DNA of 64,000 nt from a virus. This document shows, piece by piece, positions 3,022 to 33,276 of this stretch. Numbering within the stretch: position 1 is the stretch's first letter; each line of letters begins with the position of its first letter. Where the stretch lies: IMG/VR virus record IMGVR_UViG_3300030105_002498, positions 1-64,000 of that record, one strand, 5' to 3'. Position numbers and translations under genes: made by a program. The notes beneath the pieces are model-generated. The model had not been told where the DNA came from. It saw only the letters and a list, made by a program, of their open reading frames with translations, and searched no databases.

Positions 3022-3924
3022 TTAAAAGGGTGCTTCATCTGTGCTATATATTGGGTTTGTGCTCGATATAGAATCAAGTTCTCTGTACCCCATTCCAGAA
3101 GGAGATATAATGAATACTGGTTCTTCAGTTGCATTTTCTGTATCATCAATTATGCGATAACTTAAAGGATAAGCAAGGCAATCTCTACCTCTGTAGATGT
3201 CTTCCAACTCTGTCCCTCCATGTGTATCAAAGATTCCAAAAAGCTCTGAAATATTATTTCCAAGGAGTTTATTTAACCCGTTAAATTTCTCGTTTAGTTC
3301 AGTAACAGAGTTAAAGTCTACGTTAAACCCTGTATTGTAACAGTCTTTCTCAATTCTCTCTGAAGTAGTAATTTCTACAGGGACTTTATTGTGGTAGCAA
3401 TAAGGAATGTACCTATCTTTAAGGATTTCCCAAAGCTCCGAATATTTCTCTGCTGTAAAAATCTCTGAAGAAAGAAATAATTTTAAATGTGAATGATTGA
3501 TAACTCTTCGTCTTCGTACACCACTATTCTCAATAAGATTCTCAAAAGAATCTGTAGCTAACAATAAAAGTATATTATCGTTTTCATCAGCTATATAGCC
3601 TCTACAAACAGTAAGTCTATAATCATCACAACGGTAAATTTTAAGTTTATTCTCATCTGTAAGTTGCTCTAAAAATTCAGCAGGTCTAGATATACTATGG
3701 TAACTGTGTATATCCTTCATTACATTTTTAGGTCTACAGTATGAATAGACATTTCCTGCAATCTGCTCATAAAAACTTTTCCGACTTTCTGAAGGTTCAA
3801 ATATCCCTGTAGGTACATAACTGGGAAACCATTTGTTAGCTGCTGTAGTTGCCATCTTATCTTGATTAATTTGCATTCTTCCAGACTGACTTAAATAAAT
3901 TATACTAGATATGACATTATTCAT
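3022..3924 (-). CDS. hypothetical protein immediately downstream of the E1 gene (possible member of the Ubl operon)
   Basis: 300 aa; the start overlaps the E1 stop by 4 nt (ATGA). Confidence 0.6.
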   Translation of the reverse strand: MNNVISSIIYLSQSGRMQINQDKMATTAANKWFPSYVPTGIFEPSESRKSFYEQIAGNVYSYCRPKNVMKDIHSYHSISRPAEFLEQLTDENKLKIYRCDDYRLTVCRGYIADENDNILLLLATDSFENLIENSGVRRRRVINHSHLKLFLSSEIFTAEKYSELWEILKDRYIPYCYHNKVPVEITTSERIEKDCYNTGFNVDFNSVTELNEKFNGLNKLLGNNISELFGIFDTHGGTELEDIYRGRDCLAYPLSYRIIDDTENATEEPVFIISPSGMGYRELDSISSTNPIYSTDEAPF

Positions 3925-4610: not shown

Positions 4611-5794
4611 TTTTCTTTTTTAATTATCTCTTCGCAGAGAAATGAAGTAATAGATTTAATAAATGGGTAATCTTTCTCAAAGCTTTCTAAAATTTCCATA
4701 GCTTCTTCCATAATGGTGATATATTCTCGCTCTCCTTTTGCATTTGGAAAATGCAATTGAATAACAGGAACAATATCTGCAAGCAACTCTACAACAAATA
4801 CTGGTAAAGAAGCATCATCTACGTCTTCCCAATAGAATGCTAATTCTTGAATAGCAGTTTCAACCTCAAACACAACTATATCAGCAGGTTTTCCAAATCT
4901 TAACATATAGATCAAGAACTCCTCTATCTCCTCTGTCCTAGGTTGTGCTTTACTTACAACTCCATAGAAAGCTTGTTTTTTTGGATTACCCTTGGGTTTT
5001 TTCTTTTTAGAACTAGTCTTAGGCAACTTTTTATAATAAGAATTACCTTGATTTGGATTCCAACCTTTATTTACAAAAGGTTTTGACGTTTTAGTTTTAG
5101 CTATAACTGCTTTCTCAATAATTCCTCTTACTCCTTCTGCAAAATCCACATCTACACTAATTTCTTCTTGTGGTGTTTCAAGTCCACAATCATAAACAGC
5201 TACAACTTCTCTTTTGAGCGTATAAACTTGATCTTTAATACTGTAACTGTCTCCTTCATCATTAGTAGCTTCAAAAGAAACTGGAACTTCTACTTCCACT
5301 TTTGCATGAACTGCAACTTTAGCTGTAAATTCCATGAAATTATTAACTATCAAAGAAAGATAATAATTGTGAGATGGAGAGTTATCTTCTAATTCTTCTG
5401 TATCTGTATTTGAAAAATAAACAGCCATAGTATTGTGACTATGGATATGTCCAATTTTCCAGTCCATTGCTTCAGGTTTATTCATCACATAATCAATATG
5501 CTTATCATCATAACCTGAAGTATCTCTTTTCTTTTCATTGAAACTGTACTCTGTGTAGACCTGGCTACCTTTGTGCATAGGAATGATGTCTTGAAGAGTT
5601 ATCACCATCTCAGTTGGATTAGTGATACTTCCAGAAACACTATAAAGTAAAATACCAGACCATTCTACTTTATTTATTGCACGACATAAGTATTTAATCT
5701 TATTTAGAACCTCTTCAGGCATTATGGTTTTGATAATAGCTGTTTGCTCCTGCAAACTGGATGCTTTTTTTGTAGAGACTTTTGGATAATTCAT
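4601..5794 (-). CDS. JAB/MPN+ (JAMM) metallo-isopeptidase with C-terminal extension
   Basis: EWSG glutamate followed by HSH-NTMAVYF-S-NT-D, an exact H-x-H-x7-S-x2-D JAMM motif. Confidence 0.88.
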   Translation of the reverse strand: MNYPKVSTKKASSLQEQTAIIKTIMPEEVLNKIKYLCRAINKVEWSGILLYSVSGSITNPTEMVITLQDIIPMHKGSQVYTEYSFNEKKRDTSGYDDKHIDYVMNKPEAMDWKIGHIHSHNTMAVYFSNTDTEELEDNSPSHNYYLSLIVNNFMEFTAKVAVHAKVEVEVPVSFEATNDEGDSYSIKDQVYTLKREVVAVYDCGLETPQEEISVDVDFAEGVRGIIEKAVIAKTKTSKPFVNKGWNPNQGNSYYKKLPKTSSKKKKPKGNPKKQAFYGVVSKAQPRTEEIEEFLIYMLRFGKPADIVVFEVETAIQELAFYWEDVDDASLPVFVVELLADIVPVIQLHFPNAKGEREYITIMEEAMEILESFEKDYPFIKSITSFLCEEIIKKEKCQ

Positions 5795-6938
5795 TAGATA
5801 TATGATTTAAAAAAACTGGATGAATAATAAAATTTATTGTATCAGGGACTTCCTCTGCTTTAAGGCTATCCACTTGCATGTAATGTTTCCTACCTTGCAT
5901 TAAAACATAAGGTCTTCCTTTCTTTCTATCAAATTCCTCTCTTAACTGGTGTTTAGATAAGTAGTTTTCAGGGTGTGTTGTCCCCATGTATTTCCCATCT
6001 ATCTTAATAGGAGAAACTAAATAGTATTTTTTTGCATGAAATGAAGCTTCGAGATTCGCTTTAATCAAATCTCCTAATGCTTCATCAGGTTGCACTTTGA
6101 ATCTATCTTTATCTACATAAAAATTTAGCTGGTCGTAGTCTCTCATGTTGTCTATCACTCTATGAGCAAATCTATCCATATCCGAAGTAGATACCTCATT
6201 TGAGTCTGAATAAGAGCCTAGAGTAATATTTTTCATATCCATGTGAGGTACACCATCAATAGATTCCCACTCTAACATACTATCAATAGTTAATAAAAGT
6301 AACATAAAGTTATTTTCATCGAACTCTGCTCTTAATAAGGCAAGTAAGTCAGATATTTCATTATCACCTAAACAAAAATTATTCAAATAAAGTTGGTCAC
6401 TCTTACTACTATGCCATGTGGGAAGATGAGAATGAGTGTATCTTGAATGCCATTCTCTAAAAGTAAGTTTACTTCGAGTACCTCTTGGTGATCTGAAATT
6501 GACAGTAAACTGGTCAAGAGTAAAACCTTCAGGTTCAATTTCCATAACAACAAATAGATTTTCAATCTTATGTTTATGGTCAAATTTATTAGTGATATGA
6601 ATTTCTGGGTAGAGTATGTTAATATGAAGACGAAATCCTTCAAAGTGGTCATGACCACTAAATTCAGGCTCACAAATTATATCCCAATTGTCTTTGTGGT
6701 GTAAGGTTAGTTGTTTCATAACTTGGTCCATGATAACCTGAAATTTTGTTGCCATATTATGGTTGTTTCTAACCCCCCTAATCAAACCTTTCATCACCAT
6801 ATTAAATAAAAAAGAAGGTTTACGAGAGCAACCAGTTTCTTGTAAACTCCTACCTATATTAAACCATTTTCTAGTTTTAGCTGCGTTATTCTGGTTATAC
6901 TCTCTATCATGGTTAAAAATTGCTGAAGTTAAGTCCAT
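5715..6938 (-). CDS. putative E2 (UBC-fold) conjugating enzyme-like protein
   Basis: Beta-rich region followed by HSHLP (HPN-like flap) and FCLG with Cys189, then helices; sits between the Ubl and JAB genes. Confidence 0.65.
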   Translation of the reverse strand: MDLTSAIFNHDREYNQNNAAKTRKWFNIGRSLQETGCSRKPSFLFNMVMKGLIRGVRNNHNMATKFQVIMDQVMKQLTLHHKDNWDIICEPEFSGHDHFEGFRLHINILYPEIHITNKFDHKHKIENLFVVMEIEPEGFTLDQFTVNFRSPRGTRSKLTFREWHSRYTHSHLPTWHSSKSDQLYLNNFCLGDNEISDLLALLRAEFDENNFMLLLLTIDSMLEWESIDGVPHMDMKNITLGSYSDSNEVSTSDMDRFAHRVIDNMRDYDQLNFYVDKDRFKVQPDEALGDLIKANLEASFHAKKYYLVSPIKIDGKYMGTTHPENYLSKHQLREEFDRKKGRPYVLMQGRKHYMQVDSLKAEEVPDTINFIIHPVFLNHISNELSKSLYKKSIQFAGANSYYQNHNA

Positions 6939-22922: not shown

Positions 22923-23002
22923 TGCATGACTGAGTGGAATCGAACCACTTTCTCTCCACCTAGAACTAAGAGCAAATTATCCAGTATATTATACAATCAC
23001 GC
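22923..23002 (-). ncRNA. degenerate tRNA-like element
   Basis: GCGTGATTG/CAGTCATGC acceptor-like stem and AGTGG-TTCGATT-CCACT T-arm; weak D and anticodon arms. Confidence 0.5.
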
Positions 23003-23008
23003 ATTTTG

Positions 23009-23151
23009 TAGGGATAGTGGGACTTGAACCCAGGTGTATACACTTTGTACTTCAGCATATACCTCAACTTCGTTCACGTTATAAAGTTTAAGAAACCTTT
23101 TACGACCTCCTGCTTATAAGACAGGTGCTCTACCAACTGAGCTATACCCCC
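23009..23151 (-). tRNA. tRNA-Ile(UAU) interrupted by a 70-nt insertion in the T-stem
   Basis: GGGGGTA-TA-GCTC-AGTTGGTA-GAGC-A-CCTGT-CT-TAT-AA-GCAGG-AGGTC-GT[70 nt]GGG-TTCAAGT-CCCAC-TATCCCT-A. Removing 23032-23101 gives a canonical 73-nt cloverleaf. Confidence 0.8.
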
Positions 23152-23968: not shown

Positions 23969-24416
23969 TTGTGGAGGTGCTGGGATTTGAACCCAGGTCC
24001 AGACAATTTTCTAAAATACAAATTATACATGTTTTGCACAGAGAATTTCACTCTACACACTTGAACGTCAACCTAAGTTGTCAAGTCACGGTTATTTCTA
24101 GAAATAACAAGAGCAAAGTTTTCCACTTCACAGTTTTGGGATTCGCAATTCCCAGGGCTAACCGAAGTTAACTTCCACCATCTCATTTTTACTTCAAACA
24201 AAAATGAGAAAAAAGAATTACTATGCTGCTTCCAAAACTTGTGTTCTAGGAGATACATAGGTTGCAGTCAGTAAGTTATTCGCAATAGCGTTGCTTACCT
24301 CTGCTTTGTTAATTGTATTAGCAATTATGTTTTACTTATTAGTATTTTAGTGGTTAATAAGCTTTCCACTACATGTTTGTACATCTTCCAATTCCTGTCG
24401 ATTCCATTTCACCCCC
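23969..24416 (-). ncRNA. ssrA: tmRNA (transfer-messenger RNA)
   Basis: 5' GGGGGTGAAATGGAATCGAC; 3' GGACCTGGGTTCAAATCCCAGCACCTCCA(CAA); G3.U70 pair; tag frame 24322-24221 ANTINKAEVSNAIANNLLTATYVSPRTQVLEAA then TAG TAA. Confidence 0.92.
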
Positions 24417-30974: not shown

Positions 30975-31006
30975 AATAAAAGTGTTTAGCAAGAGATTAA
31001 AGAAAA

Positions 31007-31036
31007 GGGATATACACCTATTATAGTGTATATCCC
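31007..31036 (-). terminator. intrinsic terminator
   Basis: GGGATATACAC / GTGTATATCCC perfect 11-bp stem, followed by TTTTCTTT on the minus strand. Confidence 0.75.
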
Positions 31037-31043
31037 AATGTAA

Positions 31044-31316
31044 TTACAACGTGATTTCAGAAGCCTTGTACTTCACAATCCTCTTAGCGGTGTATTGTCC
31101 TTGAGGAGCATCACGCAATTCAGATTGGATAGCTAAGTCGCTAATGCTAGGGTCAGCCTGTAACTGAGCAATAAGTTCCTTGTGTAAGGACACAGCTACA
31201 CGAGCCTCATTATCCCAATGGCGCATCCATTCTGTTGGAACACCATTAGAATCATTGCTTGTGTTCAAGTTCAGAGTTGAGTAGCCGAGTTCAGATTTGA
31301 TTTCATTGATAGTCAT
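31044..31316 (-). CDS. first gene of the left arm, hypothetical protein
   Basis: 90 aa containing WMRHWDNEARVAV; flanked by a degenerate 22-bp motif and a terminator. Confidence 0.7.
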   Translation of the reverse strand: MTINEIKSELGYSTLNLNTSNDSNGVPTEWMRHWDNEARVAVSLHKELIAQLQADPSISDLAIQSELRDAPQGQYTAKRIVKYKASEITL

Positions 31317-31541
31317 GATACATACTGTTTAGATAGATAGTGGTTGACAAAATTGCCAGGAATCAGAGTGGGTCTCGAAGAGAACCTTGAGAAACAAGAA
31401 GTAGATTATTCTGCCCCAAGTTTATGTACTCTGCTAAAAATAGGTGGGGGTATTTAAGTTGGGAAAATGAGAGGGGGTTTTAATTAGGGTGGCTCACAAA
31501 CTCACATTTTTCTAAAAAATTTTCACAAACCTTTAAAAAAT

Positions 31542-31571
31542 TTGCGTACTAAAATAATCCTCAGTACCTTG
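31542..31571 (+). promoter_or_regulatory. Bacteroidota-type promoter variant TTG-N20-TACCTTG
   Basis: Same 20-nt spacing as the canonical copies; precedes the ATG at 31589. Confidence 0.55.
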
Positions 31572-31588
31572 TTTCAAATTAAAATATT

Positions 31589-31807
31589 ATGAAAGACTTC
31601 ACACACATAACACAGACAGAATTTTACGAATTATTTATAGATACAGAAAGATATTCATGGAGACAGACTGCTCCTGATATGGATTGGAGAGAAGCACACA
31701 TGGATTTTGTATGGGATAATGACACTATGGAAACAGTAGGATTTAAGAGGACTTCCTCATGGGGAGAAAAAGATGAATATTTTATCCAAGAAAAACTTGC
31801 ATACTAA
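31589..31807 (+). CDS. hypothetical protein
   Basis: 72-aa ORF behind a promoter. Confidence 0.6.
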   Translation: MKDFTHITQTEFYELFIDTERYSWRQTAPDMDWREAHMDFVWDNDTMETVGFKRTSSWGEKDEYFIQEKLAY

Positions 31808-31826
31808 AATAAGTCTTATTATCTTG
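31797..31826 (+). promoter_or_regulatory. Bacteroidota-type promoter variant TTG-N20-TATCTTG (tRNA operon)
   Basis: Same spacing; shares the TACTAAAATAA spacer sequence with the 31542 promoter. Confidence 0.6.
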
Positions 31827-31880
31827 CAGTCATAAAGGGGTTTCGCTACCTGCCTTAATTTTTAATAAATAAATAAAAAA

Positions 31881-31937
31881 ATGTTTTTAATAACTATATA
31901 TACTTATACTTGCAAATCGACTCACTACTGTGAGTAA
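31881..31937 (+). CDS. putative attenuator leader peptide MFLITIYTYTCKSTHYCE
   Basis: A-rich leader then ATG TTT TTA ATA ACT ATA TAT ACT TAT ACT TGC AAA TCG ACT CAC TAC TGT GAG TAA. Confidence 0.65.
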   Translation: MFLITIYTYTCKSTHYCE

Positions 31938-31976
31938 GAGCATTTCTATATTGTTATAACAAAACAAAAATTTAGG

Positions 31977-32011
31977 AGACTCTTACTTTAAAATAGTAAG
32001 GGTCTTTTTTT
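31977..32011 (+). terminator. intrinsic terminator (attenuator 3:4 helix) just before tRNA-Tyr
   Basis: AGACTCTTACT-ttaaaat-AGTAAGGGTCT 11-bp stem with a T-tract at 32005-32011. Confidence 0.85.
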
Positions 32012-32015
32012 ATTT

Positions 32016-32099
32016 GGGACAGTATGCAAGTTAGTCAAAGCAGGTGGATTGTAAATCCATTCTCTCACGAGTTCATAGGTGCAAATCCTATCTGCCCCA
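32016..32099 (+). tRNA. tRNA-Tyr(GUA)
   Basis: GTGGA-TT-GTA-AA-TCCAT arm, long variable arm, ATAGG-TGCAAAT-CCTAT T-arm (atypical loop), GGGACAG/CTGCCCC acceptor. Confidence 0.85.
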
Positions 32100-32105
32100 C
32101 AACAT

Positions 32106-32179
32106 GGGTTTTTAGCTCAATTGGTTAGAGCACCTCACTCATAATGAGAAGGTTCTTAGTTCGAGTCTAAGGAGACCCA
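32106..32179 (+). tRNA. tRNA with CAU anticodon (Ile2-like or elongator Met)
   Basis: GGGTTTT-TA-GCTC-AATTGGTTA-GAGC-A-CCTCA-CT-CAT-AA-TGAGA-AGGTT-CTTAG-TTCGAGT-CTAAG-GAGACCC-A; lacks initiator features. Confidence 0.88.
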
Positions 32180-32185
32180 CATTAC

Positions 32186-32258
32186 ACCATATTAGTATAG
32201 TGGCTAATTACACTTCTCTTGTAAAGAAGAAACAACAGTTCAACTCTGTTATATGGTG
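32186..32258 (+). tRNA. tRNA-Thr(UGU)
   Basis: ACCATAT/ATATGGT acceptor (C2-G71), CTTCT-CT-TGT-AA-AGAAG arm, AACAG-TTCAACT-CTGTT T-arm. Confidence 0.8.
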
Positions 32259-32480
32259 CTACTCATAGGCATGTCCTGTTTGTTTTCTATTCTCAGCATT
32301 AGTTGCTGACCAGCCTCCTATATTAGGTAGACCTTCTGACTCTTCATCAACTCTGGTACATTCTGTACTCTGACAAGTTGGGCATTTAAGAGGTCTTTTA
32401 AATTGATCCCTAAGTTCTCCTTTGATAGTGATTAATCTTTGCACTTCAAATTCATGATTGTTCTCGCAAGTTATCTTCAT
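32259..32480 (-). CDS. zinc-ribbon protein
   Basis: CENNHEFE...CPTC. Confidence 0.6.
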   Translation of the reverse strand: MKITCENNHEFEVQRLITIKGELRDQFKRPLKCPTCQSTECTRVDEESEGLPNIGGWSATNAENRKQTGHAYE

Positions 32481-32628
32481 CTTTTATTAATTGTTTTATT
32501 GATCCTTTTAATTCACTTGGGTGTGGTGTTGTTCCATATAGTACAAAGTCCCAGAATCGTTTATCCATCATATCTCTCCACTTTTTCTCAAACTCAGCAT
32601 CTTCCTTTGACATCCATAATTTATTCAT
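32452..32628 (-). CDS. small hypothetical protein (58 aa, not in ORF track)
   Basis: MNKLWMSKEDAEFEKKWRDMMDKRFWDFVLYGTT...; overlaps the zinc-ribbon gene start. Confidence 0.45.
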   Translation of the reverse strand: MNKLWMSKEDAEFEKKWRDMMDKRFWDFVLYGTTPHPSELKGSIKQLIKDEDNLREQS

Positions 32629-32881
32629 GATTGTTATTGTTTATTAAACTCGATTACGAGTCTTATGATTAAAAGTATTATAATGTAGAGTAGCATAGTA
32701 GAATCCTTTGATTATTATTAATCCAGGTGGAGGGGGACAATTTTCAGAATTGACGTATTGACTGGATTCTCTATCCAAAATTACTCATAATTACAATACA
32801 AGTCAAGTTATAACCAATATATTTTCAAAATAATTTTATTATAGGAAATCACATATTTCAGAAAAAAATTTAAAAGAAAGC

Positions 32882-32912
32882 TTGTTTAGGATTAATATTA
32901 TACTTAACTTTG
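32882..32912 (+). promoter_or_regulatory. Bacteroidota housekeeping promoter TTG-N20-TAACTTTG
   Basis: Matches the -33 TTG / -7 TAnnTTTG consensus; heads the packaging operon. Confidence 0.75.
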
Positions 32913-32934
32913 TTTCAAATAAAAATGTAACATC

Positions 32935-33276
32935 ATGATAATCGAATTCAACACAGTAAGAACCAATGACCTCGAAATGTTCGAGAGAGGGCAAGAGATT
33001 CAAAAATCTCAAGAAATGGGAATGGAGTATGTAGCTGACTTTTACAATGAAAGTGATTGGCAAGCTATTACCAGTTTAGACATGACCACAGTTATTGACT
33101 GGTCTGAAGGAACAGTATGGCTGAATGACACAGAGCTTCCTTGTGTCTATGCAAGACTCCACGGAGGTTTTATGACTAGTGCCATACTTATTACAATTGA
33201 CGACTTTAGAAAAATCTACGAAAAGATTTTCAACATTGAAGTCAAATCAGGATTAGATTACTTAAATGGACACTAA
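32935..33276 (+). CDS. hypothetical protein
   Basis: 113-aa first gene of the packaging operon. Confidence 0.65.
   Translation: MIIEFNTVRTNDLEMFERGQEIQKSQEMGMEYVADFYNESDWQAITSLDMTTVIDWSEGTVWLNDTELPCVYARLHGGFMTSAILITIDDFRKIYEKIFNIEVKSGLDYLNGH

Follow-up and report, generated by a model that had tools for sequence, protein, structure and literature searches.

Leader-peptide attenuators of amino-acid operons (trpL, hisL, pheL, and the multivalent thrL and ilvL of enterobacteria) share a promoter-proximal short open reading frame (ORF) that carries a stretch of regulatory codons and whose stop codon falls within or adjacent to segment 2 of the leader RNA, the mutually exclusive helices 1:2, 2:3, and 3:4, and an intrinsic terminator located before the regulated genes. 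In a survey published in 2010, such systems were described as then known only from Proteobacteria and Actinobacteria, to which the survey itself added Firmicutes (PMC2965389). Here, we describe a locus of the same layout in front of three transfer RNA (tRNA) genes of a phage, located within the first 64 kb of the 93,330-bp IMG/VR record IMGVR_UViG_3300030105_002498 (the entire stretch analyzed, 64,000 nucleotides, hereafter the window). We read it as probably representing a leader-peptide attenuator in which the translating ribosome would control transcription into an operon of three phage tRNA genes. Its codon run is multivalent, i.e., it covers several amino acids, as in thr and ilv. In contrast to the amino-acid attenuators, it precedes tRNA genes instead of biosynthetic, transport, or synthetase genes and thus falls outside the classical definition; since the regulated genes are tRNAs, the signal would be the decoding capacity that the operon itself supplies. 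Further differences are its occurrence in a phage of Bacteroidota, an A-rich start region without a Shine-Dalgarno sequence, and the placement of the short 1:2 hairpin, with most of the run lying ahead of it and not within it.

Among published systems of accessory tRNA genes induced by stress, the trn operon of Anabaena sp. PCC 7120 comes closest. This tRNA array is silent by default and induced upon impaired translation, with control being exerted at the promoter by direct repeats covering the -10 box and by the repressor TrcR (PMC8421152, PMC10272220). The trn paper contains no mention of a leader ORF, attenuation, or a terminator (PMC8421152). T-box riboswitches likewise read the state of a specific tRNA by transcription attenuation, but they bind the uncharged tRNA directly and without translation, and they regulate synthetase and amino-acid genes; an Rfam search of positions 31000-33000 gave no match to the T-box family (RF00230) at E-values up to 1. 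Phage tRNAs have furthermore been described as counter-defence against anticodon nucleases (PMC10264068), and Septu cleaves tRNA-Tyr (PMC13096335). The likeness to the present locus lies in phage-borne tRNAs, including tRNA-Tyr, that replace host tRNAs depleted by defence; these papers treat the tRNAs themselves and no demand-sensing expression switch (PMC10264068, PMC13096335). An attenuator of this type regulating tRNA genes in a phage was not known to the first-pass annotation of the window, and our literature searches retrieved no description of leader-peptide attenuation of tRNA genes.

Leader ORF, putative switch helices, and tRNA operon

All parts listed in the first-pass annotation (promoter-like site, ORF, helices, terminator, and tRNAs) were recovered where it had placed them. 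The leader ORF (31881-31937, plus strand) comprises 18 codons followed by TAA and begins with an ATG in an A-rich context of the Bacteroidota type. Scored with a position weight matrix built from 75 long ORFs, this start context exceeds 92% of the real gene starts and 99.4% of all ATGs. Codons 4-10 (31890-31910) constitute the regulatory run ATA ACT ATA TAT ACT TAT ACT, encoding Ile Thr Ile Tyr Thr Tyr Thr, and additional Thr and Tyr codons are found at leader positions 14 and 16. The concern that AT-rich codons may cluster here by chance loses weight, as the run of seven codons drawn from ATA, ACT, and TAT is the longest one across the six frames of the 93,330-bp genome (runner-up, 4) and as the leader ranks first of 608 ATG-initiated ORFs of 12-30 codons in its Thr plus Tyr content (0.41 versus a mean of 0.10). 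Thr and Tyr are also the top one of the 190 amino-acid pairs in the leader ORF; this content test is independent of the identity of the tRNA with the anticodon CAU discussed below. In total, four features were tested for chance occurrence, each of them separately, and as judged from sequence the arrangement of the parts is shown to be non-random.

The leader is followed by an intrinsic terminator with a U-run (segments 3 and 4, 31974-32015, plus strand) and by three tRNA genes on the same strand, which confirms this part of the first-pass annotation. The terminator hairpin (31974-32008) has a z of -4.6. The genes behind it are tRNA-Tyr with the anticodon GTA (32016-32100; ARAGORN, Rfam 46.9 bits), a CAT-anticodon tRNA of the elongator type, either Met or Ile2 (32106-32180), and tRNA-Thr with the anticodon TGT (32186-32259), the latter two being detected by both ARAGORN and Rfam. 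An initiator identity of the CAU tRNA was rejected, as it has a G1-C72 pair and lacks the three G-C pairs in the anticodon stem. Only 5 nt separate the terminator U-run from tRNA-Tyr, leaving no room for a promoter in between, and no promoter motif was found within the leader. An internal leader promoter using TATACTTG as -7 box was rejected, since there is no TTG at the -33 distance. A bidirectional terminator was rejected as well, with the minus-strand hairpin reaching only -9.7 kcal/mol and its T-run being displaced. Given this weakness in the minus orientation, the hairpin does not simply double as the terminator of the convergent minus-strand genes. Just 5' of the leader ATG, an 11-nt A-tract (31871-31881) is fully complementary to the terminator U-run (32005-32015); this pairing would sequester the start region in the terminated RNA.

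The three alternative helices are present as the first-pass annotation had described them, with calculated energies of -7.0 (1:2), -14.1 (2:3), and -16.2 kcal/mol (3:4, the terminator). Segment 2, the putative antiterminator strand (31932-31948, plus strand), contains the stop codon of the leader ORF and is a near-copy of the terminator 3' arm, with the 8-mer AGTAAGAG corresponding to AGTAAGGG in that arm. Helix 2:3 pairs 31933-40 with 31980-87 in a perfect 8 bp, and the energy given above includes a 6-bp extension (31943-48/31973-78). A perfect complement of at least 8 nt to the terminator 5' arm appeared in 0.06% of the dinucleotide shuffles of the 134 nt upstream (p ~6e-4). Hairpin 1:2, the candidate anti-antiterminator (31920-31935, plus strand; 31920-25 with 31930-35), forms the tip of a longer stem in which the ORF portion 31882-31925 folds onto 31930-31966 (-15.5 kcal/mol, z -2.8).

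As an attenuator, the locus would operate as follows. Transcripts would start near 31826 or further upstream, and the 18-codon ORF would be translated co-transcriptionally. If Ile, Thr, and Tyr codons are decoded fast, the ribosome would have arrived at codons 17-19 while the polymerase makes the terminator; covering segment 2, it would leave the 3:4 terminator to form, and transcription would stop 5 nt before tRNA-Tyr. If decoding is slow, the ribosome would lag within codons 4-10 or at Thr14, segment 2 would stay free to pair with the terminator 5' arm, and read-through into tRNA-Tyr, tRNA-CAU, and tRNA-Thr would result. The newly made tRNAs would in turn speed up leader decoding and close the switch, the supply thereby following the demand. 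Leader translation, termination, read-through, and a response to tRNA shortage are what we infer for this locus.

Ribosome masking was modeled on the leader RNA with different folding assumptions. With the full 5' untranslated region (UTR), the antiterminator is predicted to form with a probability of 0.7-1.0 for A-site codons 11-14, with 0.6-0.98 for codon 10 only if the footprint edge lies at P+15 or more, and with zero probability for codon 15 and beyond, up to the stop. If the 5' hairpin is taken as folded on itself and left out, ribosomes at codons 1-14 leave the antiterminator at >=0.77; for codons 1-10 the predicted values are 0.97 when the inner five pairs are considered and 0.77 when all eight are. 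This truncated fold resolves the end-of-ORF state only, the antiterminator probability being 0.62 already without any ribosome. In both models a ribosome at codons 17-19 abolishes the antiterminator (probability 0). The robust outcome of the modeling is thus that a ribosome at the ORF end would block the antiterminator and a ribosome held upstream would not.

The promoter assigned by the first-pass annotation to 31797-31826 falls into promoter-like copy 2 (31791-31826, plus strand), which overlaps the stop codon of a 72-aa ORF (31589-31807, plus strand), the upstream neighbour of the leader; the leader transcript is presumed to start near 31832-31835. Promoter-like copy 1 (31536-31571, plus strand, TTG-N20-TAnnTTG) precedes the 72-aa ORF and is correctly placed relative to it; its transcripts would also extend into the leader. 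Both copies form a 36-nt direct repeat with 81% identity, and they are the only sites that match the 16-mer TTGCRTACTAAAATAA perfectly. While this repeat copy ahead of the neighbouring ORF speaks for the assignment, the site is one T short of the Bacteroidota TAnnTTTG motif and is therefore not a canonical match. A 12-nt perfect inverted repeat was additionally noticed between the -33 region of copy 2 (31794-31805) and the D arm of tRNA-Tyr (32021-32032). It is kept in the sister haplotype described below, with an estimated chance of roughly 0.05-0.1. When transcription begins at the upstream promoter, the RNA copy of this repeat could pair with the precursor of tRNA-Tyr.

Screening IMG/VR with three DNA patterns and three neighbouring proteins retrieved a single other contig with the locus, representing a sister haplotype. 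The contigs of four marine DNA runs contained the same two haplotypes only, and a Tyr-CAU-x cluster upstream of the terminase was found solely on the sister contig (60 of 80 terminase-based relatives scanned). The cultured relative Fpv3 carries no tRNAs. Between both haplotypes, the leader region differs at 5 of 208 nt and the adjacent ORF at 18 of 216 nt (Fisher p 0.009). The leader ORF is unbroken in the sister, helices 2:3 and 3:4 are identical, and so is the CAU tRNA. With the tRNA genes intact, the CAU tRNA identical in both haplotypes, and neither room nor a motif for a promoter in front of them, the tRNA genes therefore seem to need read-through. The third tRNA of the sister haplotype is tRNA-His (GUG) in place of tRNA-Thr (UGU). 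Codon 5 of its leader is ACC instead of ACT, and two neighbouring substitutions turn codon 17, TGT (Cys) in the window, into CAT (His). The new His codon goes in the direction to be expected if leaders mirror their tRNAs, although a ribosome stalled at this position would mask segment 2. The breakpoint of the His/Thr swap (L003 7056-7129, minus strand, versus 32186-32259 of the window) lies directly after the CAU tRNA, the downstream minus-strand gene differs as well, and both forms occur in one marine run (X4).

The same design in related and unrelated phages

Sequence comparison shows the same design, together with covariation, in other phages. Two complete crAss-like relatives at the family level (G004 and G005), the terminases of which are ~65% identical to the one of the window phage, carry homologous modules directly behind a GroEL-like gene (L101 962-1160 and L102 821-1010, both on the minus strand), located before arrays of 8 and 7 tRNAs, respectively. 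The G004 leader has a canonical promoter (TTTG-N19-TAAATTTG) and a 27-codon ORF, in which the 15-residue run IQNNPFFNHIQEPIF consists solely of amino acids of its eight downstream tRNAs (Pro, Asn, CAU, Gln, Ile, Glu, Phe, and His); the terminator ends ~4 nt before tRNA-Pro. The array of G005 (Ala, Asn, CAU, Ser, Gln, Phe, and His) lacks a tRNA-Pro, and its 14-codon run contains Ala and Ser codons and no Pro codons. Segments 2/3/4 read AGAGGGA/TCCCTCT/AGAGGGA in G004 versus AGGAGGA/TCCTCCT/AGGAGGA in G005, so that both pairings are kept, and the change alters the leader peptide from KRE to KED. At the sequence level this is genuine covariation for an antiterminator-terminator switch, found in analogues and not in the module of the window itself. 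As to the check proposed in the first-pass annotation, whether leader codons co-vary with downstream tRNA identity in related phages, the leaders of G004 and G005 track their tRNA sets; G005 retains one Glu and one ATT codon without matching tRNAs.

Cellulophaga phage phi4:1 harbors three such modules, each composed of promoter, leader ORF, and terminator, and each placed before a block of its 22-tRNA array. The analyzed stretch (L100, NC_021788.1 84000-94000) contains 22 tRNAs according to ARAGORN, with 23 being annotated in the record, and the modules span L100 3030-3197, 3950-4171, and 5740-5927. In module 1, the ORF (L100:3066-3134) holds the 11-codon run QRLHLQELEQP, the codons of which are cognate to all seven tRNAs behind it (Pro, Glu, Gln, His, Leu-UAG, Leu-UAA, and Arg-ACG); its terminator (3160-3187) is followed by tRNA-Pro starting at 3197. 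Module 2 features a 16-residue run from the amino acids of the Ala...Arg block. Module 3 has an ORF (5772-5870) with the run YNNSNWSFSY, followed by tRNAs for Tyr, Ser, Asn, Trp, and Phe. Within this ORF, 8 nt are perfectly complementary to the terminator 5' arm, and the distance from the terminator end to tRNA-Tyr is 6 nt. The longest runs within the amino-acid set of the own block amount to 11, 16, and 10, compared with 1-5 when a run is matched to another block. In G004, G005, and phi4:1 module 3, the 3' portion of the ORF includes a sequence nearly identical to the terminator 3' arm; in phi4:1 module 1 this holds only if G-U pairs are allowed, and in module 2 the copy measures only 6 nt. 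No paper describing the leader modules of G004, G005, or phi4:1 was found in the literature.

The locus of the window shares with these modules a terminator placed 4-10 nt before the first tRNA (here 5 nt), a run made from the amino acids of the downstream tRNAs (ITIYTYT in front of Tyr, CAU, and Thr), and the 8-mer copy of the terminator arm. It differs in being small (three tRNAs, seven-codon run), in lacking sequence homology to them, and in its location at a strand switch, and its codon-level match is less exact than that of phi4:1 module 1.

Further observations were made in these phages. A 38-nt promoter-like repeat lies ahead of phi4:1 modules 1 and 2, and the annotated phi4:1 gp075 probably represents one of these leaders, annotated from a later start. 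In relative G002, a terminator-like hairpin (L103 922-947, minus strand) ends 7 nt before the cluster of tRNA-Arg(TCT), transfer-messenger RNA (tmRNA), and tRNA-Thr, and a 22-codon ORF with Phe-Phe and Trp (L103 3150-3220, minus strand) overlaps a hairpin upstream of tRNA-Trp and tRNA-Phe.

Weighing the attenuator against other explanations

The core of the attenuator reading is supported by the locus statistics and by independent analogues in related and unrelated Flavobacteriia phages, whereas the codon match, the haplotype comparison, and the geometry of early stalls do not fully agree with the proposal of the first-pass annotation. Several observations weigh against this reading. The promoter is its least secure part, weakly backed as the relaxed TTG-N20-TAnnTTG pattern is not enriched genome-wide. 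All four leader Thr codons are ACT (one being ACC in the sister haplotype), while the cognate codon of the UGU anticodon is ACA; in the phage as a whole, ACT is the commonest Thr codon (56%), followed by ACA (35%). Because of this codon choice the Thr match holds at the amino-acid level only. In the sister haplotype, hairpin 1:2 falls from -7.0 to -3.0 kcal/mol through a pair lost without compensation. Moreover, the locus is carried by two near-identical haplotypes, and there is no covariation at the locus itself. Over these two sequences, only the Cys-to-His change goes the way that a co-variation of leader codons with tRNA identity would predict, and all Thr codons are retained where tRNA-His replaces tRNA-Thr. 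Finally, the full-5'-UTR model yields antiterminator probabilities of 0.07-0.28 for codons 4-10 (~0.25 at 4-9), and pairing of the transcript 5' end competes for segment 3 in all states; the predicted effectiveness of stalls early in the run depends on the folding model.

The identity of the CAU tRNA adds to this list. The first-pass annotation had matched the run to the three tRNAs on the premise that CAU is Ile2; the Tyr and Thr parts of this match stand at the amino-acid level, whereas the ATA codons require CAU to be Ile2. Against an Ile2 assignment, the tRNA has U4:A69 and U5.G68, not C4:G69. The latter, with 5:68 or 3:70, constitutes the TilS determinants in Escherichia coli and B. cenocepacia (PMC11947777), and these may not be the rules of Bacteroidota. 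C4:G69 is also present in both annotated Ile2 tRNAs of the crAss-like IAS virus, which begin with GGGCC, and in the CAU tRNAs of G004, G005, and the contig L095. The best E. coli match of the CAU tRNA is elongator tRNA-Met, and the phage has a separate tRNA-Ile(UAU), both counting against Ile2. In favor of Ile2, a 36-nt stretch covering the D arm and anticodon arm is shared without change with the CAU tRNA of L095 (C4:G69, C5:G68), an unrelated contig and the one match in a metagenome scan with the CAU tRNA body; the tRNA further resembles the C4:G69-bearing CAU tRNAs of G004 and G005, and ATA codons are present in the leader runs of all these modules. A genome scan returned only a Shigella metU-like tRNA. 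The Ile2 assignment thus has the tRNA body on its side, and U4:A69 together with the separate tRNA-Ile(UAU) against it. This tRNA-Ile(TAT) is located at 23009-23151 (minus strand), contains a ~70-nt insert in the T arm (Rfam tRNA, 50.7 bits), and would read ATA independently of the CAU tRNA.

Some of the unfavorable observations would fit an ordinary leaky intrinsic terminator, at which transcripts covering the 72-aa ORF and those from the second promoter would end, with the tRNAs being supplied by constitutive read-through and processing, the ORF being fortuitous or a non-regulatory micropeptide, and helix 2:3 being a duplication relic. Upon alignment, segment 31919-52 indeed resembles a diverged copy of the terminator (31978-32014; p ~0.05), and the 2:3 complementarity could be a by-product of such a duplication. 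A duplication would create this complementarity automatically; equally, segments 2 and 4 of any attenuator look this way. The codon run is moreover of low complexity and nearly palindromic (31890-31907 is a 92% palindrome), the Thr codons are retained where tRNA-Thr is replaced, and the hairpin is situated between convergent units, with a minus-strand promoter at 32806 and minus-strand ORFs reaching down to 32259 to face the tRNA operon. We nevertheless consider this explanation unlikely, as it has to accept as coincidences the composition rank of 1/608, a start context in the top 0.6%, the stop codon inside segment 2, and the longest run of the genome. In addition, the design is seen again in G004/G005 and phi4:1, including leaders that correspond to their tRNAs and compensatory changes, and the hairpin is a poor terminator in the minus orientation.

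Quite unlikely, in our view, is a conditional termination independent of the ribosome, in which an antitermination factor of the phage or the host would act on the ~175-nt leader, or the leader would be a small RNA or a riboswitch-like element. The order of promoter, short structured RNA, terminator, and genes behind it is the layout of the lambda late operon (pR'-tR'). In Stx phages, tRNA genes are located just behind tR'. The leader RNA is significantly structured (z -4.7 with and -2.8 without the terminator). An Rfam search of the leader, however, assigned no family, with matches to PyrR, GlmZ, and AgvB far below threshold. The operon consists of three tRNA genes followed by convergent genes and thus offers no operon for a processive antiterminator, and the ORF composition mirroring the tRNAs here and in four other modules would be left unexplained. 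Very improbable is a DNA-level element with accidental codons, such as a palindrome bound by a protein or a portion of a replication origin located at the strand switch, to which the cumulative GC skew minimum at 30-32 kb and the 92% palindrome would lend themselves. It leaves unexplained why an ATG with a strong start context stands in frame, why the stop codon lies in segment 2, and why there is an antiterminator, and the analogues are situated away from strand switches.

Genomic surroundings and implications for phage tRNA genes

The window has a G+C content of 34%, and its GC skew as well as its coding strand change over at 30-33 kb. Matches to crAss-type PHROGs were obtained for the terminase, the portal, and the major head protein of the phage, and the closest cultured relatives are Flavobacterium psychrophilum phages of the FpV4 group (head protein 72% identical). 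The DNA runs containing the stretch are of marine origin. From these relatives and this origin, the host is probably a marine member of the Flavobacteriia. The 72-aa neighbour ORF was an orphan in a search of 5.8 billion proteins. In a contig of run X3, 60 nt at 31528-31589, including promoter copy 1, are swapped for 422 other letters, with the leader and tRNAs being unaltered. The remaining tRNAs of the phage are encoded on the minus strand at 22.9-25.5 kb, and no terminator or leader was found ahead of them. Within this region, a CTA-anticodon tRNA (22924-23000, minus strand; labeled 'Pyl' by ARAGORN), a TAG suppressor, hints at TAG recoding in part of the genome. A phage-encoded tmRNA (23969-24416, minus strand; Rfam RF00023, 98.8 bits, E 2e-37), missed by ARAGORN, adjoins tRNA-Arg(TCT), as in G002 (L103 456-915).

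Why phages carry tRNA genes and how these are controlled is a long-standing question. On the attenuator reading, the tRNA supply would be demand-driven and self-limiting, with the leader peptide reading out those tRNAs that it gates itself, and attenuation would steer the translation machinery in place of amino-acid synthesis. The suggestion of the first-pass annotation that the switch senses defence-triggered tRNA cleavage is purely conjectural and is consistent with the counter-defence work on phage tRNAs (PMC10264068, PMC13096335). With phi4:1 and Cellulophaga baltica, a cultured model that can be grown in the laboratory is available. The computable signature of a small ORF, a terminator abutting a tRNA, and a run matching the tRNA set could help to annotate phage tRNA operons and to predict, for a particular host, the tRNAs that are limiting or under attack, and leader codons could help to assign ambiguous tRNAs such as CAU (Met or Ile2).

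We regard it as evenly balanced whether Flavobacteriia phages, including crAss-like ones, widely gate their tRNA blocks with multivalent leader peptides written in the codons of the same tRNAs, each block being transcribed only when decoding by its own tRNAs is limiting. If so, such a limitation could arise at late stages of infection or following tRNA cleavage by a defence nuclease of the host, and the window would hold a minimal three-tRNA version of a self-tuning device.

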